From: a phage
Length of the DNA: 64,000 nt
Sequence record: OZ346222.1
Strand: one strand, 5' to 3'
The notes under the pieces are model-generated. The model searched no databases. It saw only the letters and a program-made list of their open reading frames with translations, and had not been told where the DNA came from. Positions 17,453 to 33,244 of this stretch are shown piece after piece; the stretch's first letter is position 1; each line of letters starts with the position of its first letter. A program made the position numbers and the translations under genes.

Positions 17453-17889
17453 TCTGCTCTTCCCCCTACCATAAACGGCCCTACCTGGCAAGTGGAATAA
17501 TTGACGAGCCATCAATCCCACACACTGTACAAATATACATGTAAAATAACTATTGCATAACCTTTCATTGTGTGGTAGCGGTGCTATTTTTTACCTGTTT
17601 TCCTTCCAAAATTGCACGTAATGCAGCTATTGCACAAAATTTAACCTGATGCACATCTCCAATATCCTGTCAACAACTAAAAATCTTTATAAGTCATACA
17701 CTTACACAGCATCGAAAGCGTGTTCTACGCGAAAAATCGAGTATAACTATAGCCGCCAGATCTCAGAATTCACGTACGCACGCCATTCTATAGCCTGCAA
17801 AGTATTTATTCCAACCACAGAATAACGGAATAGTCAATACCTGAATAAAATAATTATTCGTTTAAACTGCATAACATAAATCAGCTCAG

Positions 17890-19410
17890 GTGTCAACATT
17901 TTTCGTAAACAGTCTGAAATTGTCACTGTGAGTTATCATAAACAGAGAAATCTTTAGTCGTATAATGTTTACTGTACGTTACTATACTGACTGGAATCAT
18001 TAGATGACTAATAGAAAGATAAGAAATAATTAACAATACAATTATTTTACCTGTAACAATAAGACAACTATGCAAACGAATGGCATGGCGCGACGGAGTC
18101 GCGACATAATATAAAAGCAGTAACCATCACCCCCGTGATGGTTTGTCTGCAATCTATTAATCAGATCATAGTTGCCTTGTATTCAGTTAATCATGACATA
18201 ATAAGCAAGGCAACTATAGATCTGCTAATAGTTGCCCTGCTTTTATATTATGTCATATATTATTAACTTGTTAATTGTTAACTTGCTAATTGTTTTCATG
18301 CAAACGAATGTCATGGCTTATCCTATCTGTGTAAACAGTTAAGGTGTAAACTATCCAGGCGTAAACAGTCTATGCGGGAACAATCTATACGTGAACAGTG
18401 AAACATGAAATAATAACAGTCGTTATTGTGTCGAAAGTGTATAAGGTGTCAGACAAGTTTTTCTCCTCTTTGTCAAGTGCTGCATGAAAAATTTACAAGC
18501 TTGTATGGTAGCATTTTTGCGGCCCTGTTTACATTCAGCGATGTATGTATAATCCTTGTTGTGTGGGCGTTTAGACGTCTAGACGGTCAGAAGTCTGCAG
18601 GTTAATACCTAATCTATCGGCTGCTAACTATATCCCACACAAATAGTAAGAAATATAATTGTTATGTGCGTAAACAGTAACTCATGTTATCAATCCCTGT
18701 ATGTATCGCCAGTGGTGCGCATAATGGGTATTATGTTAAATTGCCCGTAATGATAACTATTCTCACAATGATAGGTATTCTCATTCACTCCCACAAGATA
18801 GGTTGCAAATGTTGTGCCACTGTGTGAACGGCCTAACCTATTAATTTGCCTCACTGCCTCGATATTTGAGAATTGTTATAAGAATGAGAAGTATTCCCAT
18901 TTCGTCCGCCTGGCAGCACTCCAGTCGCTACCGCTCATGACAGGGCAGAACTAGACCCTCTTCAGATATTTCTGGCTGACTCTTCAGGTCTGTGTGGGAA
19001 AAGCCAACCTCTCCGGCGGCGGGGAGGGGGTCAATTAAAAAAAATTACGTGGTGCATGAAGCGCTCTTCAGGTAAGGCATGTGTTATGGGATGAAACCCT
19101 CTTCAGGCAATGATATTTGTGGGTGTGATATTTGCTGGAAAGCCAGATATGACGGGACTCCTGGCGGGGCAGGGGTAGTACAGACAGGGAAAATATGGGG
19201 GATGTAGTTGGGGAAATTGATCAGACAGGTAGAGTATGGAATATGTTACAAGTATGTTAAATAGGGAGGATGAATATCTGCAGGATTTGTGTGTAAAATC
19301 AAAGACTTAAGTGGTGTTGTGGTATTTTCTATAAATAATTCAAGTTTAATAGGTAATATTTGTCTCTATCCACTTTGTGTGGTAAACAGATTCAGATGAA
19401 ATTGGTTTAC
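17890..19410. repeat. iteron field: at least 8 copies of GTAAACAG(T) in both orientations
   Basis: Copies at about 17899, 17969(-), 18332, 18361, 18527(-), 18669, 19381 plus variants GTAAACTA, GTGAACAG; no ORF of 60 aa or more in 17545-19823. Confidence 0.6.
18150..18320. repeat. nested inverted and direct repeats
   Basis: ATAGTTGCCTTG / CAAGGCAACTAT perfect 12-bp inverted repeat, ATGACATAATA / TATTATGTCAT inverted repeat, TAATTGTT direct repeats, flanked by direct repeats ATGCAAACGAATG(G/T)CATGGC at about 18070 and 18298. Confidence 0.7.
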
Positions 19411-19873
19411 AAGTGTATACATAATATACAAATTAAAGATACAAGAAACCCCCCTCCCCCTTCGGCTACCATTCACCTTTTCCTCTGACTGGTACTTAAA
19501 CACTTATTCAGACTCTTCAGGTTATCACCCATATATCATATGGCAGTGACTGGTGTCCTCCGGCCCCTCTTTCGTCACCCGTCCGCTTCGCCATGCTAAT
19601 GCCATAGCCAATGGTTCGGTTGTTCACTCTGTTCACTCAGGTGTATCTCCATACCCCTTCAAACCGAAGAGAACAGAAAACCCGAATTACTCGGTAAAAG
19701 AAAAGAGAAGAACTTAATTTTATCAGGATAGGCAAGAATGTCAAGGCATGACTGCTCACTAAACAAGCAAACAGTCATGTGTGGAAGGTAAGTGATTGTG
19801 GTGGTGGGAAATTTAGTTGAAAGATGTGTTATAGGTGCGCTTCCAGCACTTTGGCCGGGCAGCTAATTGTGTG

Positions 19874-20089
19874 TCAGTCCAGCGGTTCATCCTCTACTTC
19901 ACTGAAATCAATGTTCATGGTCTCCTCCCAACCATCGATCTCAGCACAAGAGTGGAGTTCTTTAGGGTTTACTCCCAAAGCCTCAGCAACAGAGTCTATA
20001 TTTAACACCTCTGGCAGGTATGATTCATCGAATTCAAGGTAAATCAGGCCACGAGTGTTGTCAGCTCCACCAAATATCTCTATCTTCAT
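19874..20089 (-). CDS. hypothetical acidic protein (71 aa)
   Basis: Track ORF; last gene of leftward array. Confidence 0.5.
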   Translation of the reverse strand: MKIEIFGGADNTRGLIYLEFDESYLPEVLNIDSVAEALGVNPKELHSCAEIDGWEETMNIDFSEVEDEPLD

Positions 20090-20210
20090 GAAATCTCCTC
20101 TGGAAATGAGAGTGTGAACAGGGTTTTATACGTTCTAATGCACAGGAATTATACACGTTTGCCTCTTCAGGCCATGCTTTAGCATGAGGAACCTGTGTGG
20201 GCTCGGTGCT

Positions 20211-20423
20211 TCATAGTCTACCACCTCTGAACTCTTCGTGCTCAGGCATAATAGAGAACCAGATATCTACGATGTCCTCCCACGTCAGGTCATCAGCCTC
20301 AGGATCTGTCTGGGACGAAGATGAAGAGTCCTCAGAATCTAAGTTTTCCTCTTTAACTGGCTCATCCAAGGGACATATGGTCACTCCTTCGGATGTCTCT
20401 TCAGATGCATGTGTGTTGATCAT
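20211..20423 (-). CDS. hypothetical acidic protein (70 aa)
   Basis: Track ORF. Confidence 0.5.
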   Translation of the reverse strand: MINTHASEETSEGVTICPLDEPVKEENLDSEDSSSSSQTDPEADDLTWEDIVDIWFSIMPEHEEFRGGRL

Positions 20424-20521
20424 GTTCCCCCCGTGAGTATTCCGGCAACAGCCGCTATGGAAGTAATGATCATCAGGATCACCACTAAAACTTCAGACAA
20501 TGTTCTCATTGTGTATTCCAT
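20420..20521 (-). CDS. hypothetical membrane micro-protein (33 aa)
   Basis: Below track cutoff; GGAGAA RBS; stop overlaps ATG of downstream gene (ATGA). Confidence 0.4.
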   Translation of the reverse strand: MEYTMRTLSEVLVVILMIITSIAAVAGILTGGT

Positions 20522-20783
20522 ATTCTCCAAACTGTGTGTGGATACTATCACGGGAGCGGTAATGTGTCAACAGCAACGCCGCGAGGGTTTGGTTAAAATC
20601 CGAGCGTATGGTGATTTGGGTCAAAACGGACGTGCGTTCTCGCTACGCTCGAAAGAGAGACTTGTTTGTAGAAAGCTCTTAAACGCTCTGTAACGAGATT
20701 ATCTGTCCAAGGTATGCAATCGTGCACCAGATAAAGAAAAGGACGCCACAGAGCGTCCTAGGTGTCTTAAATTTGATATTTTG

Positions 20784-21095
20784 CTATACCCATGAGGGCT
20801 TATCAAGGTTGGAGTAGCTGAAAGGTGTCAAAAGGTGACTGTCAAAATCCCTCAAACTATCCAAATCTTTTTCCTCGTCCTGACACCATCTGTGCCTACA
20901 TTTATTGTTGTAGTGCATAGAATGCATAGCGTTCTGCAACTTAACAGGTACAAGTGATTCAGGAGTAGATAGTATTGTTGGGTATGCCAGAATCACCTCA
21001 AACAGTGGAAACACATCGAAACTAAAGTCTATCTCTGCAGAGGTTGATGGCATATAGGAGTATTTAGCCGCCTTTGTAGACATAATCCACCTCAC
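20784..21095 (-). CDS. hypothetical protein (103 aa)
   Basis: Track ORF in leftward array. Confidence 0.5.
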   Translation of the reverse strand: MRWIMSTKAAKYSYMPSTSAEIDFSFDVFPLFEVILAYPTILSTPESLVPVKLQNAMHSMHYNNKCRHRWCQDEEKDLDSLRDFDSHLLTPFSYSNLDKPSWV

Positions 21096-21808: not shown

Positions 21809-22126
21809 TTAACGTTCTACAAAAATACCGTTCAGTTCAATAACCAGGAATTTCTGGTCTTCACTATCGTCTCGTGCCAGCACCTCACAGACGTATCGGT
21901 CATCCCCATCATCATCGCAGTCAAATACAAGACTGAGGACTTTATCATGGTAAACCTTCGCCACTACCGCCTCGTAAGTATTGCCGATTGTGAATCCAAG
22001 ATAATCTCCGATGCATTTGACAACAACATGGTCTCCAGCATTTAAGTCAATCTTCGTCATTACTGCGCTCCTTGGGTAATAATACTGTATGTAAAACTTT
22101 AACCAGAGATGTGAATAACGCCCCAA
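21809..22126 (-). CDS. hypothetical protein (105 aa)
   Basis: Track ORF. Confidence 0.55.
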   Translation of the reverse strand: MGRYSHLWLKFYIQYYYPRSAVMTKIDLNAGDHVVVKCIGDYLGFTIGNTYEAVVAKVYHDKVLSLVFDCDDDGDDRYVCEVLARDDSEDQKFLVIELNGIFVER

Positions 22127-22479: not shown

Positions 22480-22568
22480 ATAAGCACCTTACTGAAATAC
22501 AAGACACAGTGTTAAGGTTACTGACCAGCAAATAATTAACAGTGCCGTTGCAACCTTTGCAAGATTTA

Positions 22569-22856
22569 TCATAGTGCCTCTAAGATTTCATATCCTTCGG
22601 GTCGGAATACAAGCCACTCCGTGGCTCCGTTTGGTCGATACGCTTTATACAGAACAACCTGGTCTCGGCACATGCACATGGCTACATAGTTTTCATCCAC
22701 ACCTGCAGCCTGCATTGCATCTTCTTCTCCGGCAACTGCTTTGCTTACAACTTCCTTGGTAGGCAGGTGTGCGATCAGCTCGTCACCATCATTAATTCCA
22801 AAATGGCTGAGTTCGCCGTTGGTATCTTTAATCTTAATCTTAACCAGATCTTTCAT
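22569..22856 (-). CDS. small acidic protein, paralog family B (95 aa)
   Basis: Track ORF; MK start and C-terminal YE(I/V)(V/L) motif shared with neighbours. Confidence 0.55.
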   Translation of the reverse strand: MKDLVKIKIKDTNGELSHFGINDGDELIAHLPTKEVVSKAVAGEEDAMQAAGVDENYVAMCMCRDQVVLYKAYRPNGATEWLVFRPEGYEILEAL

Positions 22857-23185
22857 TAGTCTTCCCCCAGGTTCAAAGGTCCTAAGATTTCATATGCCAG
22901 ATTAGAAGTTACAAGAGGGTCTTCTGCGTCTTTAGTATTATACCACCCGTGAATAACCAGAGTCCCACTTTGTTTCATGTCCAACTGGAACTCTTCTGCC
23001 GTTTCCTCATCCAGCTCCAAGATTTCCATAAGGTATTTGATGTTAGGGAGGTATGCAGCTGTTACAGTCCCCTCTACCAGACCTTCAGGCCAACCTACAT
23101 CTGGATGACAAGTAGGAACCAGGTTGGTCAGCTTAATGGTGTACGCTTTTTCTGCACGAGCCTTCAGTAACGGGTCAATCTTCAT
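22856..23185 (-). CDS. small acidic protein, paralog family B (109 aa)
   Basis: Track ORF; start/stop overlap with neighbours. Confidence 0.55.
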   Translation of the reverse strand: MKIDPLLKARAEKAYTIKLTNLVPTCHPDVGWPEGLVEGTVTAAYLPNIKYLMEILELDEETAEEFQLDMKQSGTLVIHGWYNTKDAEDPLVTSNLAYEILGPLNLGED

Positions 23186-23535
23186 TATTCGTCCTCCTCT
23201 TCGGTACCTGCTTCCAGTAATAAGTTAAGAATATCTTCTGCACAAGGTTCATAGAACTCTTGGCCTTCATTATCGATGATTTTGTAGTCATCTCCACGAA
23301 TAATCAGGGGATCACTATCAAAATTATCGAGACCTTTAACAACGACAACACGATCGATTGCCATCATTGTAAGAACTTTATCGACATCTTCCTCTGCTAC
23401 ACCATACTGCAGCAGAATGTCTTTGGTAGGAGGAACAGCATCCACCACAACGCCGTTACCAAAACCTTCTGGAAGTTTAGCTAAAATATCTTCCGGAACC
23501 ACATTCACATCAAAACCGGTAATTTCTACTTTCAT
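23185..23535 (-). CDS. small acidic protein, paralog family B (116 aa)
   Basis: Track ORF; MKVEITG start, acidic tail. Confidence 0.55.
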   Translation of the reverse strand: MKVEITGFDVNVVPEDILAKLPEGFGNGVVVDAVPPTKDILLQYGVAEEDVDKVLTMMAIDRVVVVKGLDNFDSDPLIIRGDDYKIIDNEGQEFYEPCAEDILNLLLEAGTEEEDE

Positions 23536-23796
23536 TTACAGCACCTCTTCGTCAACTACTTCATAAAAATGGCCTGGGATTGCAATAGCGTTCTCACCTT
23601 CACCTACAAACACAGTTCCGTCAAGAATCAACATCATAAGAATTTCTGTAATATCCTCTTCCGGAACGTTGCCAAAACCTTTAATCAGCTCGTAGGTTGG
23701 AATATTTACCTCTAAGATGTCACCATCTTTAGAACGGAAATCAACACCGTCCTGAATCTCTGCCGTTTCAAGGTTTTTCAATTTAATCTTCATCAA
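23536..23796 (-). CDS. small acidic protein, paralog family B (86 aa)
   Basis: Track ORF; ends FYEVVDEEVL. Confidence 0.55.
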   Translation of the reverse strand: MMKIKLKNLETAEIQDGVDFRSKDGDILEVNIPTYELIKGFGNVPEEDITEILMMLILDGTVFVGEGENAIAIPGHFYEVVDEEVL

Positions 23797-23872
23797 TCGG
23801 TCCCCTGTCTTGTTAAGATGAAGGTATTATTTCACACAGGGTTGGCGTTGTCAACACCTGTGTGCAAGAAAA

Positions 23873-24268
23873 TTACTGAAACAGTGCGGATAAATTACCT
23901 TCTGGTGGGAACTTATCTGCCAAAAACGGTGTTAGCACAGTAGCCTTCTGAAGATCTGGGGTCCACTCGTTGTTCAGAACATCCCAGTAGTACGCAATGT
24001 TGCTGTGTGGGTGCCGCATTACGAACTTTTTCCCTTCGTAGTCATCTGAAACCTCTACAGAAGAAATAACAACAGAATCTTCAAGGGTTTCTTCATAGAA
24101 AGATCCACCTTCAAATTTCCAACGAGATGCAAGAGCCCCTGCCTTGAACGCTGCAGATAACGGACTGTCGGCAAGAACATACATTTCTTGCACTCTGTCG
24201 CTGCGATCTTTGCTTCTTACGTTGTATACAGTATCTGAGCTATACTCAACACGGTATAGTCTTACCAT
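23873..24268 (-). CDS. hypothetical protein, paralog family C (131 aa)
   Basis: Track ORF; shares HP...YW...W(T)P motif with 26074..26472. Confidence 0.55.
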   Translation of the reverse strand: MVRLYRVEYSSDTVYNVRSKDRSDRVQEMYVLADSPLSAAFKAGALASRWKFEGGSFYEETLEDSVVISSVEVSDDYEGKKFVMRHPHSNIAYYWDVLNNEWTPDLQKATVLTPFLADKFPPEGNLSALFQ

Positions 24269-24627
24269 TACCGCACCTCCTCAATAACTTCCACATCTGA
24301 ACCCACCACAAATGCAAAAGGACAGGTTTCATGAAAGACATCCGGATCTCCGCCAAGCTTGCTAACAATTTCTCCACCACTAATAAACACAAGCTCACCG
24401 ATATTCATCAGATTGCTGAAATAGTATCCATAATGATTAAAGAATGCAGCAGGGTCAGGTAGACTAGTAGCCTCAAGTTCTACATCGGTTGAGATTACTT
24501 TCTTATCATAACCTCTCGCCTTCTGAGATGCAAGATCCGCAGAATCTTCAGGCGACCTGAGATGCACAGGAATTGTTTCACCAATAAAGCGTACTTTCAT
24601 ATTATCACCCAACAACCATAGCTTCAA
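24268..24627 (-). CDS. small acidic protein, paralog family A-like (119 aa)
   Basis: Track ORF; internal MKVRFIGE may be the true start; ends VEVIEEVR. Confidence 0.5.
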   Translation of the reverse strand: MKLWLLGDNMKVRFIGETIPVHLRSPEDSADLASQKARGYDKKVISTDVELEATSLPDPAAFFNHYGYYFSNLMNIGELVFISGGEIVSKLGGDPDVFHETCPFAFVVGSDVEVIEEVR

Positions 24628-24868
24628 AAGGGGTCATGAACGAATAAACGGCATCATCATCTGCTTCAGGGAATGCTCCCAAAGACTTCATGTCTGAGCC
24701 CTTGACAAATACAAGGTTTTGATCAAAAGCTTCTTGGGGATCAATCCGATACATATTTCGTAGAATATCGCTTACCTCCTCATCAAGAGGTGAGTATGCT
24801 GTGCACGTTTTTCCGATCAAGCTTTGAGAATCAGGGTATCCACCTGAAGTTTTAAAATAAACAATCAT
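24605..24868 (-). CDS. hypothetical protein (87 aa)
   Basis: Track ORF. Confidence 0.5.
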   Translation of the reverse strand: MIVYFKTSGGYPDSQSLIGKTCTAYSPLDEEVSDILRNMYRIDPQEAFDQNLVFVKGSDMKSLGAFPEADDDAVYSFMTPFEAMVVG

Positions 24869-24958
24869 ATAGTATCACCTCTGGTAAGAGATGGGATTCC
24901 TTTCCCACAAATAATTACAAACCTTCCTTATCGAGGAAGTATGCTAATCCAAGCAGGA

Positions 24959-25228
24959 TTATTCCTCTACAATCTCATACACATCAGGAGTTACAATCAA
25001 CTCTTCTCCGTTACCCGGTGCAATAAACACCACCAAACCTTCAGGTGTGTGCTTTTTAGCCATCTCGATAACATCTTCCCGCAGGGCTGGCTCCATCAGA
25101 TCAAAACCTTCACCCAGGGCATCACGAACCACCTTCATATAGTCCACTGGTTGTGCTTCAACAATCATGCCTTCAACCAGACCACAATTTTTGTCTGCCA
25201 GCTCAGTTTTGAATAATTTAATTTTCAT
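24959..25228 (-). CDS. small acidic protein, paralog family B (89 aa)
   Basis: Track ORF; MKIKLFK start, ends VYEIVEE. Confidence 0.55.
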   Translation of the reverse strand: MKIKLFKTELADKNCGLVEGMIVEAQPVDYMKVVRDALGEGFDLMEPALREDVIEMAKKHTPEGLVVFIAPGNGEELIVTPDVYEIVEE

Positions 25229-25261
25229 TTAGAGGTCTCCTCAATTATTTGATATTAATAG

Positions 25262-25363
25262 CCGTAACCTAACACATTAACTACAACTGCGATTGCAAAC
25301 ATAATTTCAAAGCATGCAATCTCTACATTTGGGACTAATTTCTTGATCACACCCATTGTAGCA
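25262..25363 (-). CDS. hypothetical hydrophobic micro-protein (33 aa)
   Basis: Below track cutoff; GAGGTG RBS 6 nt before ATG. Confidence 0.3.
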
Positions 25364-25365
25364 CC

Positions 25366-25683
25366 TCATTCTCTAAAGTCAATCTTTACTTTGCCTTTCC
25401 CCTTACCTTTCTTTCCACCGCATTTAGCCAGTTGACGTGCTGCAACATCTACCATACGGTCAGTTGCCTCGTAAGCATCACTGCCTTTAGCTTTGGCAAT
25501 AACTTCTTTTCCAGAATTGTCAAAAATGAACGCCATAACTTCCTGGTGATCATTTTCAACTTTTACACTCACACGTGCATAGTTGGCAGAGGGATGCAAA
25601 CGCTCCAGCTTAGACATTTTGTGGGAAATGAAAGACACCATACCTTCAGTGATTTCTACGTTGCCAGTGATTTCAATTTGCAT
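25366..25683 (-). CDS. hpf: ribosome hibernation promoting factor / RaiA-like protein
   Basis: Track ORF; MQIEITGNVEITEGM...KLERL...SVKVEN...AKAKGSDAYEATDRMVDVAARQLAK follows the bacterial HPF/YfiA pattern. Confidence 0.8.
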   Translation of the reverse strand: MQIEITGNVEITEGMVSFISHKMSKLERLHPSANYARVSVKVENDHQEVMAFIFDNSGKEVIAKAKGSDAYEATDRMVDVAARQLAKCGGKKGKGKGKVKIDFRE

Positions 25684-25765
25684 AACGTGTTCCTTTTAAA
25701 GAAGAGGGAACCAAACCCTCTTTGAAAACAATGATACTAAATCTGAAGCGTTGTGTCAACAGTTT

Positions 25766-26056
25766 TTACAGATTGTTGTCGATAGTTTTTAAAATATCCA
25801 CAGCAAGATCTGCCATTTTTCGAACATACTCTGCAAACTCAACAGGATCCTTGATCAAAGAATTCACAGGGTCGTACCCTAGAGCGTTCAAAATGGCTGC
25901 AGCATCTACAACCTTCTCATCATTTGCGAAGATCTCTCCATCAAACTTGTAGGTCCATTTTGAGTCAATCTTGGCAGGGAATGATTGGTCAACGCTTGTT
26001 ACACCATCCTTTTTAAACGCTCCGGTGTTATCAGTGTCTAGAACTAAATCCATCAT
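25766..26056 (-). CDS. hypothetical protein (96 aa)
   Basis: Track ORF. Confidence 0.5.
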   Translation of the reverse strand: MMDLVLDTDNTGAFKKDGVTSVDQSFPAKIDSKWTYKFDGEIFANDEKVVDAAAILNALGYDPVNSLIKDPVEFAEYVRKMADLAVDILKTIDNNL

Positions 26057-26073
26057 GTTAGTACCTCACCGTT

Positions 26074-26472
26074 TCAGTTTAGCTTTTCTTCAACAACCCC
26101 ATAGCTCGGGACAGAGTCAAGAGCTTTCTGGTTTAAAAGTGGTGTAGCAGAATCTGCAAACGGTGTCCAAGTTTTTGTTCTGGCGTTCCAGTAATGCTTC
26201 ACTCTGGAATCTGGATGCACTATAACAAAAACTTTTTCACTTGTCAACACATTAATTTCTTCCACACCCCTGCTGATAATTTCTCCGTCATATCCCCCGG
26301 TCTGGTATCCTTCGTACCAGGTTCTTGCATAGGCATAGCCAGCCTGCCAGCATGCAGCCTCCTCCGAGGTGGAGACTACGTAGAAGTCTTTCTCAAATTC
26401 TGGGATACGCCCTTGCTTTACGCTCCAAGCTCCGCGAATTTTCATTGTAACTTTGAATAGTTTATTTTTCAC
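26074..26472 (-). CDS. hypothetical protein, paralog family C (132 aa)
   Basis: Track ORF; paralog of 23873..24268. Confidence 0.55.
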   Translation of the reverse strand: MKNKLFKVTMKIRGAWSVKQGRIPEFEKDFYVVSTSEEAACWQAGYAYARTWYEGYQTGGYDGEIISRGVEEINVLTSEKVFVIVHPDSRVKHYWNARTKTWTPFADSATPLLNQKALDSVPSYGVVEEKLN

Positions 26473-26484
26473 AACGGTTACCCA

Positions 26485-26739
26485 TCACAGTTCTACAATA
26501 TCTGCATCTGACCCTGCCCCAAAGGCATAATAGGACTCTTCCCCGAAATAATATTCCGGTGCACCAGCAGCGATCAGGTCTGATCCCAAAATGAATACCA
26601 CGTTGTGGCCTACATAGCTGTGATTTTGCCGCACAGGATCATCCCACGGCAACCCTTCGAAGTATACCGCAGGGACGACCTTTCCTTTCAGGAAGGATTG
26701 CCCCAAGTAGACGTTAGAATCAAGAATTTTAACCTTCAT
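26485..26739 (-). CDS. small protein, paralog family A (84 aa)
   Basis: Track ORF; MKVKILD...GK(V)...LIAAGA motif. Confidence 0.55.
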   Translation of the reverse strand: MKVKILDSNVYLGQSFLKGKVVPAVYFEGLPWDDPVRQNHSYVGHNVVFILGSDLIAAGAPEYYFGEESYYAFGAGSDADIVEL

Positions 26740-26956
26740 GATCGTCCTCCACTATCTCTACATCCTCACCTAGGGCAAAGTTGTAGGTCCACTGACTGTC
26801 AAAGCATTCCTGAGATGCACCAGCGGCAATAAGATCTGCCCCTTTTATTTTTAAAAGGTCAGGGTAATCTTCGTTAGGGACAGCAGTAAACACTTTCCCT
26901 ACTAAAGGCTCCTGACCAATATAGAAGCTTGAATCTAAAACTTTAACTTTCATCAA
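26729..26956 (-). CDS. small acidic protein, paralog family A (75 aa)
   Basis: Track ORF; MKVKVLD...DLIAAGA; ends VEIVEDDHEG. Confidence 0.55.
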   Translation of the reverse strand: MMKVKVLDSSFYIGQEPLVGKVFTAVPNEDYPDLLKIKGADLIAAGASQECFDSQWTYNFALGEDVEIVEDDHEG

Positions 26957-27240
26957 CGGTCTCCATCAGGTGGTTGTGGGACGTAAACACTGTTACGAAT
27001 ATCGTCCGCAGTATAGTAATAAGTGTCTCCAACCCTATCTCTGGCTGCAATGTACTCTGCTATACCAATAAGTGCCATTGATTTGGTGGCGTATCTTCCC
27101 CACTCGTTAGCTCCCCAGTAGAATTTAGACCAGTAGGGAATAATACCGAACAAATATACCTTTTGACGAACTTCCCAGTAAGTGCCTTTTCCGACAAGTT
27201 TAAACTCTACTTCACTACTGTTAATCTTTTTCATTATCAA
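26953..27240 (-). CDS. hypothetical protein (95 aa)
   Basis: Track ORF; ATGA coupling. Confidence 0.5.
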   Translation of the reverse strand: MIMKKINSSEVEFKLVGKGTYWEVRQKVYLFGIIPYWSKFYWGANEWGRYATKSMALIGIAEYIAARDRVGDTYYYTADDIRNSVYVPQPPDGDR

Positions 27241-27533
27241 TCTCCCTCTACCGTGGTCGGATTGTCAGTAAGAAATTGAGCATTGGCTGGAGGCACGCCT
27301 GACATTTTCCACACAACCATAAGTTTGTAACCAGGAACTCTATTAAGTGCAGATCGAGTAGAGTTTGTGCACGTATACTTTCGCTTTCCAAACCCGTTCT
27401 CCATCATAATCCAGTACCCAGTATCTTTGTCACCAGGTATCGGTAGACCACCTTCATCAACCCACTGAATGGACCACGGCACGATGGCTACAGCTTTATA
27501 TTTAAACTTTTTAAACCACTCAAAAAGTTTCAT
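27237..27533 (-). CDS. hypothetical protein (98 aa)
   Basis: Track ORF. Confidence 0.5.
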   Translation of the reverse strand: MKLFEWFKKFKYKAVAIVPWSIQWVDEGGLPIPGDKDTGYWIMMENGFGKRKYTCTNSTRSALNRVPGYKLMVVWKMSGVPPANAQFLTDNPTTVEGD

Positions 27534-27628
27534 AATTCAGCCTCGCATAGACATAATCACTATAAACAGGCAAACAATGAATCCGAATGCCACGCCACCC
27601 ATAAACGTTAATATTGATGCAATCATAG

Positions 27629-27826
27629 TCAATCAGCCTCGCTTGGCAACTCTTCTACCTTAACATGCCGAAAAGTGTTACCGTAATGGTTGATCCATGA
27701 CATCAGCTCGCTTTCTTGCTCTTCCTCTGGGATGAACTCTCGAATGCTGACAAGTTTTAAGAAAACCCAATCACAATCTGCACCCATTCTACCAGACAGG
27801 CAATAGTGCTTCATAAAACCCCCCAC
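27629..27826 (-). CDS. hypothetical protein (65 aa)
   Basis: Track ORF. Confidence 0.5.
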   Translation of the reverse strand: MGGFMKHYCLSGRMGADCDWVFLKLVSIREFIPEEEQESELMSWINHYGNTFRHVKVEELPSEAD

Positions 27827-27831
27827 CTGGT

Positions 27832-28026
27832 TTAGAATATTGCTTCTTCCATTGCACCTGAGAGCAACAAAGAGGTGATCTGGCTAACATTCATCTCAGA
27901 CTCTACTTCCTCCCCTTTGAAAGGTTCGCGGCAGAATAGGACTGTTTCAGGACTTTTACTTCGAACAATATAATACAAATCATTCAATGTGTTGTAGTAA
28001 TAAGTGTTAAAACGTAAGTTTTTCAT
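27832..28026 (-). CDS. hypothetical protein (64 aa)
   Basis: Track ORF. Confidence 0.5.
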   Translation of the reverse strand: MKNLRFNTYYYNTLNDLYYIVRSKSPETVLFCREPFKGEEVESEMNVSQITSLLLSGAMEEAIF

Positions 28027-28310
28027 TTTCTAGTCCCCTTCTTAGATTTTTGTGTAGAAACGCTTTCTGCAATACGAGACAAACGTTCTTCTGAAGCCTT
28101 GCCTATTCCAGGTTTTTTGAGTGGGTTATCTTTATGACCACAATCCAATTGGATATTGGATACCTCTCCAACCTTGTAAGTCAATTCTAGCAAAAGGTTG
28201 TCGTCCTTGTCAAATGTTCTTACGATAAATTTTTTATCGTTCTCCTGAACTTCGTATCGGGTACCCGCAGTATACAGCATGGTGCCATCCGCATAGGATA
28301 TCCAGATCAT
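28023..28310 (-). CDS. hypothetical protein (95 aa)
   Basis: Track ORF; ATGA coupling. Confidence 0.5.
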   Translation of the reverse strand: MIWISYADGTMLYTAGTRYEVQENDKKFIVRTFDKDDNLLLELTYKVGEVSNIQLDCGHKDNPLKKPGIGKASEERLSRIAESVSTQKSKKGTRK

Positions 28311-28654
28311 TGAACCTCCTTCTGCTGCAACAGCATTAACTCTTTGTTGGAGATTTTTACTGCTGTTTTTATTGTTCCATCTTCACGAAACCACGACCAG
28401 AACTCTACAGTGTCACCACTATCAAGTAAAGCATGCCCATGGTAAAAATCTTTGTCCTTAGACAGTTTCTCATCTATATCTGCATCAACACATTCGTGAT
28501 CCATAGCATTTTGCCTGAACGCATCGGTTATGCCAATGCACGCCTTGCTCTCAAGACTGGTATATCCGATATCTTTTAATTCAGTTTCCCAAGTCCAGTA
28601 CCCTATAAAAGCTAAAACAGCTACCCACAGTAATAACGTTTTAATCTTTGGCAT
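28307..28654 (-). CDS. signal-anchored/secreted protein (115 aa)
   Basis: Track ORF; hydrophobic N-terminus LLLWVAVLAFIGYW. Confidence 0.5.
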   Translation of the reverse strand: MPKIKTLLLWVAVLAFIGYWTWETELKDIGYTSLESKACIGITDAFRQNAMDHECVDADIDEKLSKDKDFYHGHALLDSGDTVEFWSWFREDGTIKTAVKISNKELMLLQQKEVQ

Positions 28655-28716
28655 TCTCTCTACCTCTTTCTTAGTTTATTTCACTATGGCACATCCTTTG
28701 TGCCATATCTCAACTA

Positions 28717-28959
28717 CTACTTAAATAGTAGTTCAAAATAGTGCAAAATTAACAGAAGTTGAACTACACCTAGTGCAACGGCGAGTATGTTAATCTTAGA
28801 ATCGAAAAACTTCTTAACTTTTACTCTAAAAGGTTCCTTAATGTCCTTTACGATCCTATCTATAGATGACCTCATATCTCTGATTACCATCCTGAACATT
28901 AAAGACGGATGCTCCCCCCATCTCTGTAACGGAATCAAAAACATACTCTCTTCGGTCAT
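28717..28959 (-). CDS. hypothetical membrane protein (start uncertain)
   Basis: Track ORF overlapping the upstream gene by about 100 nt; true start probably an internal Met; hydrophobic C-terminus. Confidence 0.35.
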   Translation of the reverse strand: MTEESMFLIPLQRWGEHPSLMFRMVIRDMRSSIDRIVKDIKEPFRVKVKKFFDSKINILAVALGVVQLLLILHYFELLFK

Positions 28960-29188
28960 AAGGGCCGCCAGCTCTGCGTATTAACCTCTCCACAGAGACT
29001 TCGAACGTCACACCTGTAACGTAATCATCTATAACAAGTCGTGACGGGTCTTTACCTTTACTATCAAGAGGTATCAAAGTTATCTTTCCAGATTTTGTTA
29101 AAATTTCCCCTTTTTCAAGCAAGGTGTACCAATGCTCTCTGCCAAGACTGTTGAGGCACGTTTTTACATATTTAACAAACATCGTCAC
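28856..29188 (-). CDS. hypothetical protein (110 aa)
   Basis: Track ORF. Confidence 0.5.
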   Translation of the reverse strand: MTMFVKYVKTCLNSLGREHWYTLLEKGEILTKSGKITLIPLDSKGKDPSRLVIDDYVTGVTFEVSVERLIRRAGGPYDRREYVFDSVTEMGGASVFNVQDGNQRYEVIYR

Positions 29189-29388
29189 CCCTCATCGCAC
29201 GTCTGATATAACCACTCTATAAAATCTTGATACCATTCGCCCTCTGAGCGCTCCGTAGGCCAATAATCTTCACCCTCTCGTGCATTAAAATCTGAGTATT
29301 CAACTTTCCACTCCTTTACCAGCTCGTGGAGAAGGTTTTCAGCCTGCTCTAAAGATTTATTTTTTACCATTGCTGTCTCCTTTTTCAA
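29185..29388 (-). CDS. hypothetical protein (67 aa; second ATG with AAGGAGA RBS may be the true start)
   Basis: Track ORF. Confidence 0.5.
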   Translation of the reverse strand: MKKETAMVKNKSLEQAENLLHELVKEWKVEYSDFNAREGEDYWPTERSEGEWYQDFIEWLYQTCDEG

Positions 29389-29589
29389 GATAGTTATACA
29401 TCAGAACTGCACCACCTAAGATGGCTACCAGTAACAATACCCCAGATAGCATCTCAATAAACATGGCTTGAAACACTGGAAGGCCTCCCTAAATTAACGC
29501 ACCATTTTAAATACATGCTCTTTTCCCATAAAGGTGCCTGGCTAAGATCTGCGTAGAACGCAATCTCTTTAAGAACAGTATAAACAGTT

Positions 29590-29826
29590 TTAGGTGCGGT
29601 CTCCATCCCTACCCTCCTTTTTCTCCTTCCTGATATTCTTGTAGTAATCAACTAGGCACATTATTACGATGAAGATAACAACAGGCCAAAAAGGTGCAGC
29701 AGTGATGATGGTGATAAAATCATCAAACTTCACCCTTCGTCTGGACACGATGCATACACCTGTCAAGAATACCGCTGTTATAACGGACATTACCAGGTAA
29801 CCTATTAGCACAACATTTATACTCAT
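29590..29826 (-). CDS. membrane protein (78 aa, two TM helices)
   Basis: Track ORF. Confidence 0.55.
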   Translation of the reverse strand: MSINVVLIGYLVMSVITAVFLTGVCIVSRRRVKFDDFITIITAAPFWPVVIFIVIMCLVDYYKNIRKEKKEGRDGDRT

Positions 29827-29856
29827 TGGTCCTCCCTTTGTAGGTTAAATTGTATA

Positions 29857-30390
29857 CTACAAATGGTCGCTGAGGGTGTCAAGAAAATTATCCCGTTCTT
29901 TCTCAGAGTTTTCATGTGTGTAGCTGAAAAACATATCGAGAATAACCTTATTGATATATTCCAGCTCCTCTGTGTTCAGATGCTTAGCAGGATCTACAAT
30001 GACATCCCAAATATCATACAGACCACACTCATGATACCCATAACGCCACTCAATTGTCAAGCTGAGCGGCAAATCTTTACCTTCACAAACAACCTTCCAT
30101 CTACATATGTTGGTATCTGGTCGTACCTGTGCACGGTACACCTGCACAAAATCCAATTTGAATTTGAGGTACTCGTCATACAATTTAAGCACAAAGCTCT
30201 CGATTTGTGGAGACACTTTTGCAGCAAACTGTGCGTATTTGTACTTGCACTGGATGATCTTTCTGCGTTTTGCAGTTAAATTTTTTGCCGCCAGTTGTTC
30301 TTCAGTGTATCTCCACCTACGATCAACAAACGCAACAGGGTCTTTGTCCCCATAGAGGTCTTCCCAGTTAATCAGAAGCATACCTGTCAC
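29857..30390 (-). CDS. hypothetical protein (177 aa)
   Basis: Track ORF. Confidence 0.55.
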   Translation of the reverse strand: MTGMLLINWEDLYGDKDPVAFVDRRWRYTEEQLAAKNLTAKRRKIIQCKYKYAQFAAKVSPQIESFVLKLYDEYLKFKLDFVQVYRAQVRPDTNICRWKVVCEGKDLPLSLTIEWRYGYHECGLYDIWDVIVDPAKHLNTEELEYINKVILDMFFSYTHENSEKERDNFLDTLSDHL

Positions 30391-30620
30391 TCCTCCACAA
30401 CTTCAAGGCCTTTACCGCCTCGCTCTGGCAGATTACTTAAAGATAGGTAATACATATAATCAGGAGAGATCCTGCCAGACTCTGCACCTGCAGCTAGTAA
30501 ATCCTTCCCTTTAACCAGGACAACATTCTCGTTTGCAGATAGCCGTTTTGCTTCCACAATTTTACCAACACAGTCAACCAAGGAAGGGTACCCTAAATCT
30601 GTAAGAAATTTAACTTTCAT
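30387..30620 (-). CDS. small protein, paralog family A (77 aa)
   Basis: Track ORF; MKVKFLTD...GK(I)VEA...DLLAAGA; ends LEVVEE. Confidence 0.55.
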   Translation of the reverse strand: MKVKFLTDLGYPSLVDCVGKIVEAKRLSANENVVLVKGKDLLAAGAESGRISPDYMYYLSLSNLPERGGKGLEVVEE

Positions 30621-30657
30621 GCTACCTCCTACCTACCGTCCCTGGTAAGATAAATTA

Positions 30658-31056
30658 TTACTGAACAGAGCGCGGTGCTGGGAAGGATAACTCTTCTAAA
30701 GAGAAGATTTCATTTCCTACCACCCAAGTTGCTGGGTCATCTGGATCAACAGGTTGGATAATCATTACCTCATCCGCCTCGCACACACGTTTCCCACCCA
30801 TAGTAGCGTCAGCCACTAACATACGCGGCTCTTCAGAAATGCACAGGTAGCCACCTCGGCCCACTGTTCCTTCCACGGGATCCTGCCCTTTGACCACAAT
30901 GAATACCTTCTCTCCTGTGGAGATATTACTTTTCACACTAACAGTTTGACCAACTTTAGATGTACCGATCTTGGTGGCTTCAAACATTAAATCCCGAATT
31001 ACTGTTGCATAGTTGCCGGACACTTTCTTACCTTCTTTAGTAATCTCAATCTTCAT
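30658..31056 (-). CDS. hypothetical protein (132 aa)
   Basis: Track ORF. Confidence 0.55.
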   Translation of the reverse strand: MKIEITKEGKKVSGNYATVIRDLMFEATKIGTSKVGQTVSVKSNISTGEKVFIVVKGQDPVEGTVGRGGYLCISEEPRMLVADATMGGKRVCEADEVMIIQPVDPDDPATWVVGNEIFSLEELSFPAPRSVQ

Positions 31057-31328
31057 AATCTAGGCTCCTTAAATGAATCTATGTAATCAATTAAATCCCA
31101 AGCATCGCGATGGGCTGTCAGAGGGTATACTTCTCCGAGAGGGATCATAGCAATAAGTCTATCAAAAACCCAGTCTGGACGCAACATTTTATGGTGATAT
31201 TCCCACTCACCTTCCACAGATTTTTTCTGAGTGATCAGGATCTCTGTGTAGTGTTTCGCCTGTCTTGAGTAGATTGAAAATGACTTGTACATAAATGACC
31301 CCCTCTTGTTGAAAACAACAATACACAA
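31053..31328 (-). CDS. hypothetical protein (91 aa)
   Basis: Track ORF. Confidence 0.5.
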   Translation of the reverse strand: MCIVVFNKRGSFMYKSFSIYSRQAKHYTEILITQKKSVEGEWEYHHKMLRPDWVFDRLIAMIPLGEVYPLTAHRDAWDLIDYIDSFKEPRL

Positions 31329-31643
31329 CTACCAGGTTACTGTCAAGTAGGCAACCGTATTATTTTTCTCTGGGGAGATGCCAACAACATCTACCTGCAG
31401 ACCTCCTGCCCTTAAATCTCCAACAATGTGCGGGAAGTAATCTGAGAGATGCGAGGGTAGATTTATCGAAAATCCGCACCCCAGAAAGCCTGCTAACGCT
31501 TTATTTTGTATCTCCCCTACAATCGCATCATAAATGGAGTTAAGCTCGTCAGGGAGTGTTACAGGGCGTTTTAGCGCTAGCTGGTGTAATTTGTCCTTAG
31601 CACTCATTTTCATTTCAGGTCTACCTCTGGGGGTGCCAACCAC
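31329..31643 (-). CDS. hypothetical protein (104 aa)
   Basis: Track ORF. Confidence 0.5.
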   Translation of the reverse strand: MVGTPRGRPEMKMSAKDKLHQLALKRPVTLPDELNSIYDAIVGEIQNKALAGFLGCGFSINLPSHLSDYFPHIVGDLRAGGLQVDVVGISPEKNNTVAYLTVTW

Positions 31644-32143
31644 ATAAACGGCGGCAAGTCTAAACGGTTTTTCTTATCCCACACAAAATATGCATATGCT
31701 TGCCCGTCAGTTCTGCCGTTTGATTGAAATGATGGACGCTTAGATATTGTGATCACAGTAGTAGGTGCATTATCAAGCCACCATTCAAATCTGGCTTTGC
31801 TTTCCAGAAAATTAAGACGCAAAAGCATAATAACTACGTCAGCATCTTTCAACGCCTTGTCTACAAACTCACGAGCCAGGCTGTATGGTGGGTTGGTGAT
31901 AATACAGTCAACATGGTTGTATTCTGTATTCAGATAGTCAACACCTTCTTGTATTTCTCCCCATGCAGATCCTAACGGCATACGGGAGTAGAACACACCT
32001 GAGGCACTATTCCTGCAAGGCTCTAAGTAGGTCCAGTCTTCTGGGAACGGAATAAGGTCATACAGCCCTTCTGCACACCACTCCGGTGTCACATACTCAT
32101 CGTAGGCGTTACGTTGTTCATCAGGTTTTCTAGCACAAGTCAT
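31610..32143 (-). CDS. phage-type DNA N6-adenine methyltransferase (Dam-like)
   Basis: Track ORF; YVTPEWCAEG N-terminal segment and catalytic NPPY motif. Confidence 0.75.
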   Translation of the reverse strand: MTCARKPDEQRNAYDEYVTPEWCAEGLYDLIPFPEDWTYLEPCRNSASGVFYSRMPLGSAWGEIQEGVDYLNTEYNHVDCIITNPPYSLAREFVDKALKDADVVIMLLRLNFLESKARFEWWLDNAPTTVITISKRPSFQSNGRTDGQAYAYFVWDKKNRLDLPPFMWLAPPEVDLK

Positions 32144-32194: not shown

Positions 32195-33244
32195 TTAAGC
32201 TTCTTCGACAATTCCTGCACCCAGGATTTTTTCATTGAGCTCTTTTGCTGTTTTAATAATATTGTCCACCAGACGCTTGCGAGTCTTATCTTTCACCTTA
32301 ACCTCTTCACCGCCGTTCAGAGTAGTCTTCAATTGAGACAGAATATCCTGAAGTTCAACGACAGAGAATCTCTGCAGATCTTCTGAAGTAATCTCACTCA
32401 GGGCAATTCTGACGGTCTCGCCACTTTCCATCTGCAGATTCAGGAACACAGTGTGAACATCACCTTTCGAACCACCCGCTTTTGCAGATTCAACAGCATG
32501 AACTAACTCATCTAAAGATGTGCACTGGTGAATCTCCGGAAGACCTGCTTCACCTAACACGCCTTCTTCATCACCTTTTGCCAGAAGCTTTTTCGGTTTT
32601 TGTCCGTTCTGGATGCGTTGTATGTTGCCTTCATCCAGAATAATAGCTCCAGTGCGTGCTGCCAGCTCTTCTCCGTCCAACCACACTTCGCCACCAGCTG
32701 TGATGGATGCGATCTCATCTTCTGTCAGCACCCCACCGTAGTATTTTTCGATCAGGCGTTCAAAACGTTTTTTCCAGTAGCTGACCTGAGTATTCATGTT
32801 CACACCGTTACCATAAGTGCCACCTTGATAGTAGTGGAACATAAACTCTGTGTCCGGAGCCACAGTACGTTCTTTACAACCAAGCCATAAGATTGTTCCA
32901 GCAGAGCAGCACATCCCTTCAGCATGTGCAACAACGCTTGCCTGAGACTCTCGGAATGCCTGCAGATAAGCCATTGCAATGTGCACGCAACCCCCAGGGC
33001 TATTGATGATCACCCGAATGCTTTCTTCCGGCTGAGCCATACGGATCGTCTGCAGACGAGACATATGATCTTGTAAGTCTTCCAAATCGTCGATATAAAG
33101 AACGTGGTCAACAACAGGTGTTGGGTAGCTGTATGTTTCCATGATACCGCCCGGCATACCAAACATTTTATTACTCATAGGTTCGAAACCGTTCTGTTTT
33201 TCTTTCATGCCGTGCACCATGGTTCTGCGAGGTGTTAAATTCAT
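32195..33244 (-). CDS. ClpP-family serine peptidase with C-terminal extension
   Basis: Track ORF; VIINSPGGCVHIAMAYL and GMCCSAGTIL match the ClpP active-site region. Confidence 0.7.
   Translation of the reverse strand: MNLTPRRTMVHGMKEKQNGFEPMSNKMFGMPGGIMETYSYPTPVVDHVLYIDDLEDLQDHMSRLQTIRMAQPEESIRVIINSPGGCVHIAMAYLQAFRESQASVVAHAEGMCCSAGTILWLGCKERTVAPDTEFMFHYYQGGTYGNGVNMNTQVSYWKKRFERLIEKYYGGVLTEDEIASITAGGEVWLDGEELAARTGAIILDEGNIQRIQNGQKPKKLLAKGDEEGVLGEAGLPEIHQCTSLDELVHAVESAKAGGSKGDVHTVFLNLQMESGETVRIALSEITSEDLQRFSVVELQDILSQLKTTLNGGEEVKVKDKTRKRLVDNIIKTAKELNEKILGAGIVEEA

Follow-up and report, generated by a model that had tools for sequence, protein, structure and literature searches.

The block at positions 22569-30620 of the 64,000-nucleotide stretch of phage DNA that we analysed (sequence record OZ346222.1; hereafter the window) is a conserved Vequintavirus accessory region with three old paralog families. 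The window phage is a Vequintavirus, an rV5-like E. coli myovirus, and the block contains twelve small, mostly acidic minus-strand genes that fall into family A (n = 5), family B (n = 5) and family C (n = 2). The ten A and B genes encode acidic single-domain proteins of 74-116 aa that are predicted from structural models to share one small barrel fold. One module, 24605-24268-23873 (genes are named by their lower coordinate), is required in the clinical strain CFE311, though polarity may leave only its family C gene (bas54_0150 in the phage used for the experiment) needed; the second family C gene, 26074, contributes in the same strain.

The array is made up of two A-A-C modules, four B genes in a row, and one isolated copy each of B and A. 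In both modules the family C gene comes after two A genes, and the packing is tight: stop and start codons either overlap or are separated by 4 nt. The family genes and the other features of the array are as follows.

30387..30620, minus strand: family A, 77 aa, pI 5.4; lone copy beside a 'putative glycosidase' gene; phrog_5009 E 8e-36; hhalign to 26729 98%
26729..26953, minus strand: family A, 74 aa, minimal barrel (predicted); first gene of A-A-C module 1
26485..26739, minus strand: family A, 84 aa, loop of ~21 aa between strands 2 and 3 (predicted); second gene of module 1, 11-nt overlap with 26729
26074..26445, minus strand: family C, 123 aa; third gene of module 1; phrog_7379 E 5e-69; hhalign to 23873 97%
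25731..25759, minus strand: sigma-70-like promoter match by consensus only, 11/12 positions; lies in the array, upstream of the gene for the ribosome-hibernation factor
25366-25683: ribosome-hibernation-factor homolog, inside the array
24959..25228, minus strand: family B, 89 aa; isolated copy, flanked by the hibernation-factor gene and module 2
24923..24939, minus strand: weak terminator-like hairpin from a pattern scan, with a stem of 6 pairs that includes 3 G-C; located between 24959 (B) and module 2
24605..24868, minus strand: family A, 87 aa, insertion of ~26 aa between strands 2 and 3 (predicted); first gene of A-A-C module 2
24268..24600, minus strand: family A, 110 aa, insertion of ~55 aa (predicted); second gene of module 2, 4-nt gap to 24605
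23873..24268, minus strand: family C, 131 aa; third gene of module 2, start overlaps the 24268 stop (ATGA); phrog_7379 E 2e-66
23826..23854, minus strand: sigma-70-like promoter match by consensus only (TTGACA, 17 nt, AATAAT, TG), 11/12 positions; within the 77 nt that separate module 2 from the B run
23536..23793, minus strand: family B, 85 aa; first in the run of four B genes
23185..23535, minus strand: family B, 116 aa, net charge -21, acidic C-terminal tail
22856..23185, minus strand: family B, 109 aa, N-terminal extension
22569..22856, minus strand: family B, 95 aa; final gene of the four-B run

All eleven genes listed in the original prediction are present on the minus strand with the low coordinates it gave, and the GenBank annotation of JohannBauhin, a 98.9% identical phage, concurs, with shorter starts for 24268-24600, 26074-26445, 23536-23793 and 26729-26953. 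The prediction spoke of at least twelve adjacent leftward genes; the number and the direction stand, but the genes are not adjacent, as about 18 unrelated genes are interspersed in the same 8 kb. Eleven of the twelve family genes lie within 22569-26953. A six-frame scan of the whole window found no further family members.

The division into three families, first made by eye, is borne out by PHROG matches, hhalign and leave-one-out profiles; all-versus-all alignment and profile building, the check proposed along with it, recovered the families. Three A proteins (26485, 26729 and 30387) match phrog_5009 over their full length (E about 5e-32 to 1e-39) and are linked to one another by hhalign probabilities of 92-99.5%, the highest being for 26485 and 26729, which are 42% identical. 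The lone copy 30387 is 43% identical to a prophage homolog (P0030). The fifth A member, 24605, was missing from the earlier list; it matches phrog_5009 weakly (E 1.2e-4) and is placed by hhalign (89-91% to other A members) and by its leave-one-out profile (E 9e-8). The gene at 24268, earlier called only a probable member, belongs to phrog_13661 and joins family A only through profile-profile comparison, which confirms the assignment through the C-terminal half (hhalign 90-95%; 95% with 26485 across 39 C-terminal columns; leave-one-out E 1e-6). The family C pair 23873 and 26074 likewise holds as predicted, with both proteins in phrog_7379 and a shuffle-based Smith-Waterman p of 2e-10.

Family B is the least secure of the three, and we considered whether it and the fold shared by A and B could be chance resemblances produced by short motifs, acidic composition and a merged AlphaFold alignment. 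The five B members fall into five separate PHROGs, BLAST detects no B-B similarity at whole-window scale, A profiles compared with B profiles yield nothing, and the alignment given to AlphaFold for the B model presupposes homology. Against this, the five genes named in the original prediction were recovered as a family despite being invisible to BLAST. Seven of the ten B-B pairs rank within the top 23 of 378 pairs by Smith-Waterman with composition-preserving shuffles; with one divergent ortholog added per gene, seven of ten are within the top 16 of 325 by hhalign, and all 16 top pairs are within-family. Whichever four B subfamilies are used to build a profile, the fifth is its best match in the block (E 8e-10 to 2.7e-5, 34 sequences). 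By member, 24959 is the top match at E 2.7e-5 (hhalign to 22569 49% over 84 columns), 23185 scores E 8e-9 (86% to 23536, 78% to 22856), 22856 E 2e-7 (78% to 23185, 40% to 22569) and 22569 E 1e-7 (49% to 24959, 40% to 22856, 38% to 23185). The B alignments are nearly full length, non-family pairs never exceed 17%, and all five AlphaFold models have a pLDDT of 80 or above. We regard chance resemblance as extremely unlikely.

The small acidic character that had been noted was upheld: ten of the twelve family proteins have a pI below 5, net charge runs from -6 to -21 in ten of the twelve, and pI in the families is below that of the other 22 block genes (Mann-Whitney p = 0.0008). Structure prediction, proposed earlier as a test for DNA-mimic folds, gave SH3-like five-stranded barrels, not all-helical folds, for both the A model (pLDDT 92) and the B model (pLDDT 89). 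These models have five strands in SH3 order and are superposable on solved SH3, KOW or PsaE domains. The barrel is constant, with strand 1 reading MK[VI]K... and strand 5 ...[VI][VI]E; between strands 2 and 3 the chain varies in length, from about 7 to about 55 residues, or forms two helices, and it is this insertion that sets the A and B models apart. The A model superposes on the BFVD structure of the 24605 ortholog from Shigella phage CM1 (TM 0.80), and Foldseek retrieved proteins of like fold and size from the T4-type phages RB49 and Merlin and from other large enterobacterial phages (TM 0.7-0.83). Profile comparison gave no sequence support for homology between A and B. There were no Pfam matches at E up to 1 for ten members, and so none to an SH3 or KOW model, no NCBIfam matches above cut-off and none in a PDB sequence search.

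The original prediction spoke of tandem amplification; a recent event of that kind does not fit paralogs that are 25-45% identical as proteins. The region 22500-31100 contains no direct DNA repeats longer than 27 nt, which indicates that the copies are old and were not recently amplified. The pooled pN/pS is 0.11 (91 synonymous, 35 non-synonymous changes), as expected for real, maintained genes under purifying selection. The family C gene 23873 is found in 119 phage records with an identity of at least 95%, and the gene order is retained in a phage that is about 50% identical at the protein level. The two closest copies, 26485 and 26729, do recombine, and in other genomes they are fused into a single 70-aa chimera. 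The families are confined to the genus with the exception of A, which also occurs on one contig with an SU10-type capsid gene and in lambdoid prophages, where it occupies the accessory slot that separates the Q antiterminator from the lysis genes; this distribution fits a horizontally traded accessory gene.

Evidence on function comes from transposon sequencing of phage Bas54 in a 2025 preprint (Extended Data Table 8; 10.1101/2025.11.20.689424). Bas54 is near-identical to the window phage, and its family orthologs are 95-100% identical; the orthologs behind the transposon results were mapped at 97-100% identity. Disruption of all twelve orthologs was tolerated on E. coli K-12, and on uropathogenic CFE311 insertions fell to zero (adjusted p = 0) in bas54_0150 (23873, family C; log2FC -6.77), bas54_0151 (24268, family A; -6.17) and bas54_0152 (24605, family A; -7.16), which together are module 2 (10.1101/2025.11.20.689424). 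In the same strain bas54_0157 (26074, family C) showed an approximately fourfold drop (log2FC -2.14, adjusted p 0), and the remaining eight of twelve genes, five B and three A, were without phenotype in this one clinical strain (10.1101/2025.11.20.689424). The need for three or four genes only in the clinical strain makes them candidate host-specific counter-defence factors. The strain and plasmid tables list deletion constructs of Bas54 for just two genes, 0063 and 0140, and, as cloned CFE311 systems, only DS-28 and Gao_Tmn; bas54_0140 was validated as needed against the defence system DS-28 (10.1101/2025.11.20.689424). Its ortholog lies at 20785-21084 of the window (99% identical), 1.5 kb downstream of the array.

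We propose, with about an even chance of being right, that the A and B proteins would act as stoichiometric binders on a barrel scaffold and that at least the A-A-C module would neutralise a strain-specific host factor. The variable strand 2-3 insertion of each copy may bind a different host protein. The factor neutralised by the module would most likely be an immune system that CFE311 has and K-12 lacks, and the remaining copies would serve against other hosts. The original prediction of a host-takeover or anti-defense locus is partly supported. In its favour are the strain-specific requirement, the tolerance of disruption on K-12, the promoter matches in the leftward block, the nearby anti-DS-28 gene and the prophage slot of family A; against it, the genes are old, conserved and not fast-evolving, and most had no phenotype in CFE311. 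Near-invariance across the genus is unusual for active arms-race loci and counts against a counter-defence explanation, and the CFE311 requirement could stem from something besides immunity. A bolder version, which we put forward only tentatively and think rather unlikely, is that A and B form a repertoire of at least ten SH3-scaffold binders whose specificity lies in the strand 2-3 insertion, each directed against a different immune or regulatory protein, with A-A-C as a three-protein counter-defence unit against a CFE311 system.

General host takeover, in which the barrels bind conserved machinery (RNA polymerase, ribosome or RNA) in the manner of KOW-type barrels and tune early transcription or translation, seems unlikely to us. 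Strong conservation and purifying selection would be expected for a conserved target, and a ribosome-hibernation-factor homolog sits within the array. However, such a target predicts like effects in both hosts, and the genes are all dispensable on K-12 with a phenotype in one clinical strain only; moreover, the proteins have no Pfam KOW or other nucleic-acid-binding signature, and their acidity disfavours RNA or DNA binding. Acidity could instead point to nucleic-acid mimicry, with acidic surfaces imitating the phosphate backbone and titrating defence proteins that bind DNA, for example restriction enzymes or BREX. The negative charge of ten of the twelve proteins and the acidic tail of 23185 suit this reading, and a barrel does not exclude it, as DNA mimics are not known to share a single fold. 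The classic DNA mimics Ocr and ArdA have all-helical folds. The models obtained here are compact barrels of 74-85 aa and not elongated helical dimers, and the absence of any Pfam match extends to the Ocr and ArdA models. In addition, Vequintavirinae are exceptionally susceptible to restriction-modification systems, seemingly without effective protection (PMC8594841, the BASEL paper), and we judge mimicry improbable.

It may also be that only family C matters, with the A genes of module 2 scoring through lowered expression of the C gene downstream and A and B being largely redundant and of low value. Both C paralogs score in CFE311, the A pair preceding the weaker C hit does not, and translation of 24605, 24268 and 23873 is coupled. 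The leftward block has several strong sigma-70-like promoter matches, and the one after 23873 implies that polar effects would stop there. On the other hand, 0158 and 0159, which lie immediately upstream of 0157, showed no depletion of insertions, which argues against strong transposon polarity; the preprint authors found insertions upstream of essential genes usually tolerated and argued against widespread polar effects (10.1101/2025.11.20.689424). A and B are also under clear purifying selection. We therefore consider a role for family C alone quite unlikely, less so than mimicry and more so than general takeover.

Phages of the rV5 type rank among the coliphages most often isolated and go into cocktails for biocontrol and therapy, and their early genes are mostly without assigned function. 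Here, two predicted architectures and a simple plan of modules take the place of twelve 'hypothetical proteins', and one module is tied to a host-strain-specific requirement that was already in published data but not followed up there. If the barrels are inhibitors, they would offer a compact natural scaffold for blocking bacterial immunity and would predict which clinical strains a therapeutic phage infects. Were the repertoire reading true, the similar fold and size of proteins in T4-type and other large enterobacterial phages would make this a widespread, unrecognised class of inhibitor scaffold.

The sequences themselves are already catalogued, as the window proteins match PHROG profiles end to end (E 1e-32 to 1e-76): phrog_5009 for A, phrog_7379 for C, and phrog_12794, 12457, 12155, 12359, 11868, 13661 and 13920 for the B and divergent A proteins. 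These entries are all labelled 'unknown function', split B into five and separate 24268 and 24605 from A. The rV5 genome paper nowhere mentions paralogs or duplication; the paralogy, shared fold and module order are recorded neither there nor in PHROGs. Compared with SH3-like small beta-barrels (SH3, KOW of Spt5/NusG/L24, PsaE and the retroviral integrase C-terminal domain), the A and B proteins show no sequence relation in Pfam, NCBIfam or PDB searches. Unlike SH3 and KOW barrels, they stand alone, are acidic and carry motifs specific to each family (G.DLIAAGA for A; EED and Y[EK][IV][IV] for B), and B and two A members bear large strand 2-3 insertions. Small size and strong acidity are shared with Ocr and ArdA, phage or plasmid proteins expressed early, but there is no sequence match, the predicted architecture differs and this phage group is reported to be highly restriction-sensitive. 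Large virulent phages of the T4 type have clusters of small early genes, known as 'hyperplastic regions'. The array resembles them in its short, tightly packed genes behind host-type promoters, which are dispensable in laboratory hosts and mostly without assigned function, but it is highly conserved within the genus, not plastic, and is dominated by ten copies of one predicted fold. A functional parallel is bas54_0140, which encodes a small protein in the same leftward block and, like the module 2 genes, is dispensable on K-12 and required in CFE311. Its sequence is unrelated to A, B or C, and unlike them it evolves fast (pN/pS ~1, 9 changes; 32% identity to the divergent phage) and has a known target, DS-28.

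The leftward block at 22569-30620 (−) had been predicted to hold three families of small paralogous proteins, and all-versus-all alignment with profile building recovered these as families A (30387, 26729, 26485, 24605 and 24268; genes are named by their low coordinate), B (24959, 23536, 23185, 22856 and 22569) and C (26074 and 23873). BLAST comparison within the window paired 26485 with 26729 (42% identity), 26729 with 30387, and 23873 with 26074; 24268 and 24605 were linked weakly. Among the PHROGs, 26485, 26729 and 30387 belong to phrog_5009 and 23873 and 26074 to phrog_7379, and each B gene, as well as 24268 and 24605, has a separate PHROG. When all 378 block pairs were scored by Smith-Waterman alignment against 300 composition-preserving shuffles, A and C pairs came out on top, and 7 of the 10 B-B pairs were among the top 23. 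Profile-profile comparison of per-gene ortholog alignments raised 24268, which the original prediction had placed only probably in family A, to clear A membership together with 24605. For a second round, one divergent ortholog per gene was added from L011, a metagenomic relative with ~50% protein identity. With these added, every one of the 16 best of 325 hhalign pairs fell within a family, and a chain of links joined all the B genes (23536-23185, 86%; 23185-22856, 78%; 24959-22569, 49%; 22856-22569, 40%; 23185-22569, 38%), the majority of these alignments being nearly full length. In leave-one-out tests, a four-subfamily profile always ranked the fifth first among block proteins (E-values of 2e-21 to 1e-6 for A and 8e-10 to 2.7e-5 for B).

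The BLAST, PHROG, shuffle, profile and leave-one-out results thus bear out the observation and extend it by a fifth A gene, 24605. All three families are upheld by the shuffles and hhalign comparisons, and A and B also by the leave-one-out profiles; for family B, which had no link in the within-window pairwise BLAST, we regard chance resemblance as extremely improbable. The proteins had also been described as acidic, and pI was indeed below 5 in 10 of the 12 family proteins, against 41% of other block genes (p = 0.0008). Scanning the window in six frames retrieved no additional family members, and Pfam, NCBIfam and PDB sequence searches of the family proteins gave no informative match.

AlphaFold modelled the A protein 26729 (alignment of 36 A sequences) as five strands and one short helix (pLDDT 91.9, pTM 0.80), and the B protein 23536 (merged alignment, 39 B sequences) as the same five strands, with strands 2 and 3 separated by an insertion of two helices (pLDDT 89.2; at least 80 in each of the five models). 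In the A alignment, the segment between strands 2 and 3 spans ~7 residues in 26729 and 30387, ~21 in 26485, ~26 in 24605 and ~55 in 24268. From these insertion lengths and the two models, one A protein and one B protein with its merged alignment, we conclude that 10 of the 12 genes encode one predicted SH3-like scaffold with one hypervariable site. Profile-profile comparison of A with B gave no sequence signal. Common ancestry of the two families is plausible rather than demonstrated, on the basis of the predicted fold, the MK[VI]K start, the [VI][VI]E end and their location. A Foldseek search of predicted viral structures returned proteins of matching size and fold (TM 0.7-0.83), none of them characterised, from RB49, Merlin, Sf20, CS01, ZCKP1 and other large enterobacterial phages.

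In family C (23873-24268 and 26074-26445), a conserved HP..S...YYW......WTP at residues ~64-107 weakly resembles a repeated YYW motif in P0102, a 1900-aa S-layer-type protein in which one copy of the motif overlaps a Pfam SH3_10 match; this is a slight indication that a small barrel may be present in family C as well. Other short genes of the block (e.g., 21809-22060 and 30658-31056) look beta-rich and start with MK.[EK][IL] (MKIEITKEG in 30658). These and others might share the barrel fold, and no profile linked them to the families.

The 9 kb around the array shares 98.9% identity with Escherichia phage JohannBauhin (BASEL Bas53) and matches 122 phage records, nearly all of them rV5-like Vequintavirus. 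Eighteen GenBank records labelled 'Campylobacter phage' (host Campylobacter jejuni) share 95-99% identity with this E. coli Vequintavirus across the region, which suggests mislabelled hosts or contamination in these deposits. The array lies within a long minus-strand block of short genes, with GC skew negative from ~20 kb to 56 kb, and the following genes are located upstream of the small-gene block.

Genes upstream of the small-gene block
PhoH-like ATPase
32195-33244, ClpP-like protease
31610-32143, N6-adenine methyltransferase

The GenBank annotation backs the ORFs, with shorter starts for 24268-24600, 26074-26445, 23536-23793 and 26729-26953. Along the direction of transcription, the array begins with an A gene (30387), followed after ~3.4 kb of other genes by a first A-A-C module (26729, 26485, 26074). 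Next come two unrelated genes, including a ribosome-hibernation-factor homolog, and a 33-codon ORF annotated in related genomes, then a B gene (24959), a second A-A-C module (24605, 24268, 23873) and a run of four B genes (23536, 23185, 22856, 22569). Within the modules and the B run, neighbours overlap or abut (11 nt, 1 nt ATGA, 4-nt spacings). Three candidate regulatory features fall among these genes.

Candidate regulatory features in the array
23826-23854, strong sigma-70-like consensus match in a gap
25731-25759, strong sigma-70-like consensus match in a gap
24923-24939, weak hairpin

Host-type promoters occur throughout the rV5 genome (PMC3606486). We infer, from consensus promoters only, that the array is probably expressed early; our literature search found no usable published transcriptomics of these phages. 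The homolog of ribosome hibernation / sigma-54 modulation factors at 25366-25683 (−) (phrog_8990, E 1.5e-6; so annotated in GenBank relatives) sits mid-array behind its own strong promoter-like site.

The small-gene block ends at ~17800-20700, a stretch with ~2.5 kb free of convincing genes that lies between divergent transcription units at the change of GC-skew sign. It contains a perfect 18-nt inverted repeat (18103-18120 / 18237-18254) and several further repeats, was termed non-coding in the rV5 paper (PMC3606486), and received zero transposon insertions in the HIDEN-SEQ preprint (10.1101/2025.11.20.689424). Rfam gave no family match there and only tRNAs across the window. The stretch may serve as an origin of replication or encode regulatory RNA. 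Elsewhere in the window, a tRNA cluster at 60743-61555 (+) holds seven genes (Arg, Tyr, Ser, Thr, Met, Pro), one of which, an unusually long call at 61212-61310, has a four-base anticodon by ARAGORN and scores as a weak tRNA in Rfam (35.5 bits).

A search of 5.8 billion proteins yielded 39 A, 53 B and 6 C clusters, nearly all on ~130-kb contigs. In these databases, families B and C were essentially confined to Vequintavirus-like contigs. When the C profile was run with HMMER against all 1.84 billion representatives, it returned 7 proteins and added nothing convincing. Two of the seven hits were no more than short repeats of a YYW motif within large surface proteins, one of them overlapping a Pfam SH3_10 match, and were rejected as too weak. 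The syntenic region of two Seunavirus phages of the same subfamily contained no A, B or C homologs. Family A alone was found elsewhere: a 75-aa homolog (43% identity to 30387) lies in lambdoid prophages among the small genes between the Q antiterminator and holin and occurs in 13 of 5,426 complete E. coli genomes, and a 107-aa homolog lies beside an HTH gene on a contig with an SU10-type capsid gene.

There were no DNA-level repeats among the family copies, which indicates that the duplications are old. Across six closely related genomes, the twelve genes carry 91 synonymous and 35 non-synonymous changes (pN/pS 0.11), and are therefore under purifying selection; 23873 is found at 95% identity or more in 119 phage records. 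L011 keeps the gene order, save that an unrelated 96-aa gene stands where the first C gene would be and a further gene is inserted, and the family genes are somewhat more diverged from it than their neighbours (median identity 49% vs 62%, p = 0.03). Two independent assemblies (L012 and L013, 3001-3213) carry a single chimeric gene of 70 aa in place of 26729 and 26485. It follows 26729 for ~145 nt and 26485 from there on, switching within the conserved stretch that encodes DLIAAGA, and so shows directly that adjacent copies have undergone homologous recombination. The two A-A-C units may stem from a segmental duplication, but by hhalign scores the A genes are not clearly paired by module position. 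The segment 27237-~29188, which carries some seven unrelated small genes, is missing from Bas54 (MaxBurger) but occurs in the window, Bas52, Bas53, Bas55, Bas56 and L011; the block is therefore polymorphic for its presence.

The functional evidence derives from a single preprint, 'Systematic mapping of bacteriophage gene essentiality with HIDEN-SEQ' (10.1101/2025.11.20.689424), in which a related phage, Bas54 (MaxBurger, MZ501093), rather than the phage of the window itself, was analysed by transposon sequencing, with one clinical strain, the uropathogenic E. coli CFE311, bearing on the array. The twelve family genes correspond to bas54_0146-0153, 0157-0159 and 0166 (95-100% protein identity). 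On K-12 they are dispensable: all twelve were scored 'non-essential' or 'intermediate', and insertions occupied 69-100% of their TA sites. From K-12 to CFE311, mean insertions fell to 0.0 throughout the second module, from 108 in bas54_0150 (23873, C; log2FC -6.8), 71 in bas54_0151 (24268, A; log2FC -6.2) and 142 in bas54_0152 (24605, A; log2FC -7.2), and from 256 to 57 in bas54_0157 (26074, C; log2FC -2.1), with an adjusted p = 0 in each case. The drop in bas54_0153 (24959, B) was non-significant, and the four other B genes and both 0158 and 0159 (A) were unchanged (10.1101/2025.11.20.689424). One module is therefore required in a host-strain-specific manner, as in part is the other C gene. 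The Bas54 counterpart of the hibernation-factor homolog was non-essential on K-12 and unchanged in CFE311.

The main text of the preprint does not discuss the family genes. It follows up 0063 and 0140, which are needed against DS-28 of CFE311, and the CFE311 systems cloned were DS-28 and Gao_Tmn only (10.1101/2025.11.20.689424). bas54_0140 corresponds to 20785-21084 (−) of the window (99% identity), 1.5 kb beyond the array in the same leftward block. This gene shows no relation to A, B or C and looks fast-evolving (pN/pS ~1 from 9 changes among close genomes; 32% identity to L011). In the copy of Extended Data Table 8 used here (sheets Data S6 and S7), the sheet labelled 'K-12 vs CFE303' (Data S6) repeats the command line and numbers of 'K-12 vs CFE311' (10.1101/2025.11.20.689424).

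We give about an even chance to a joint reading in which the barrels would bind host proteins, with the variable insertion setting specificity, and the A-A-C module would counter a strain-specific factor, most likely an immune system. That the proteins act on conserved transcription or translation machinery we consider unlikely. It is rather improbable that family C alone is functional and the remaining signals are polar artefacts: polar effects may operate inside 0152-0151-0150, but the authors argue against widespread polarity (10.1101/2025.11.20.689424), and 0158 and 0159, the genes immediately before the depleted 0157 in the direction of transcription, showed no loss of insertions, consistent with their view. 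These phages are reported to be highly sensitive to restriction (PMC8594841), which speaks against nucleic-acid mimicry, and we judge that reading very unlikely.

The sequences are already catalogued as PHROGs of unknown function and as hypothetical proteins in more than 100 genomes, and our literature search found no description of their paralogy, fold or module structure. The main value of the finding is that an obvious, specific experiment follows from it. Clusters of small accessory early genes, some of them anti-defence, are a well-known kind of locus, and this block is likewise one of them.
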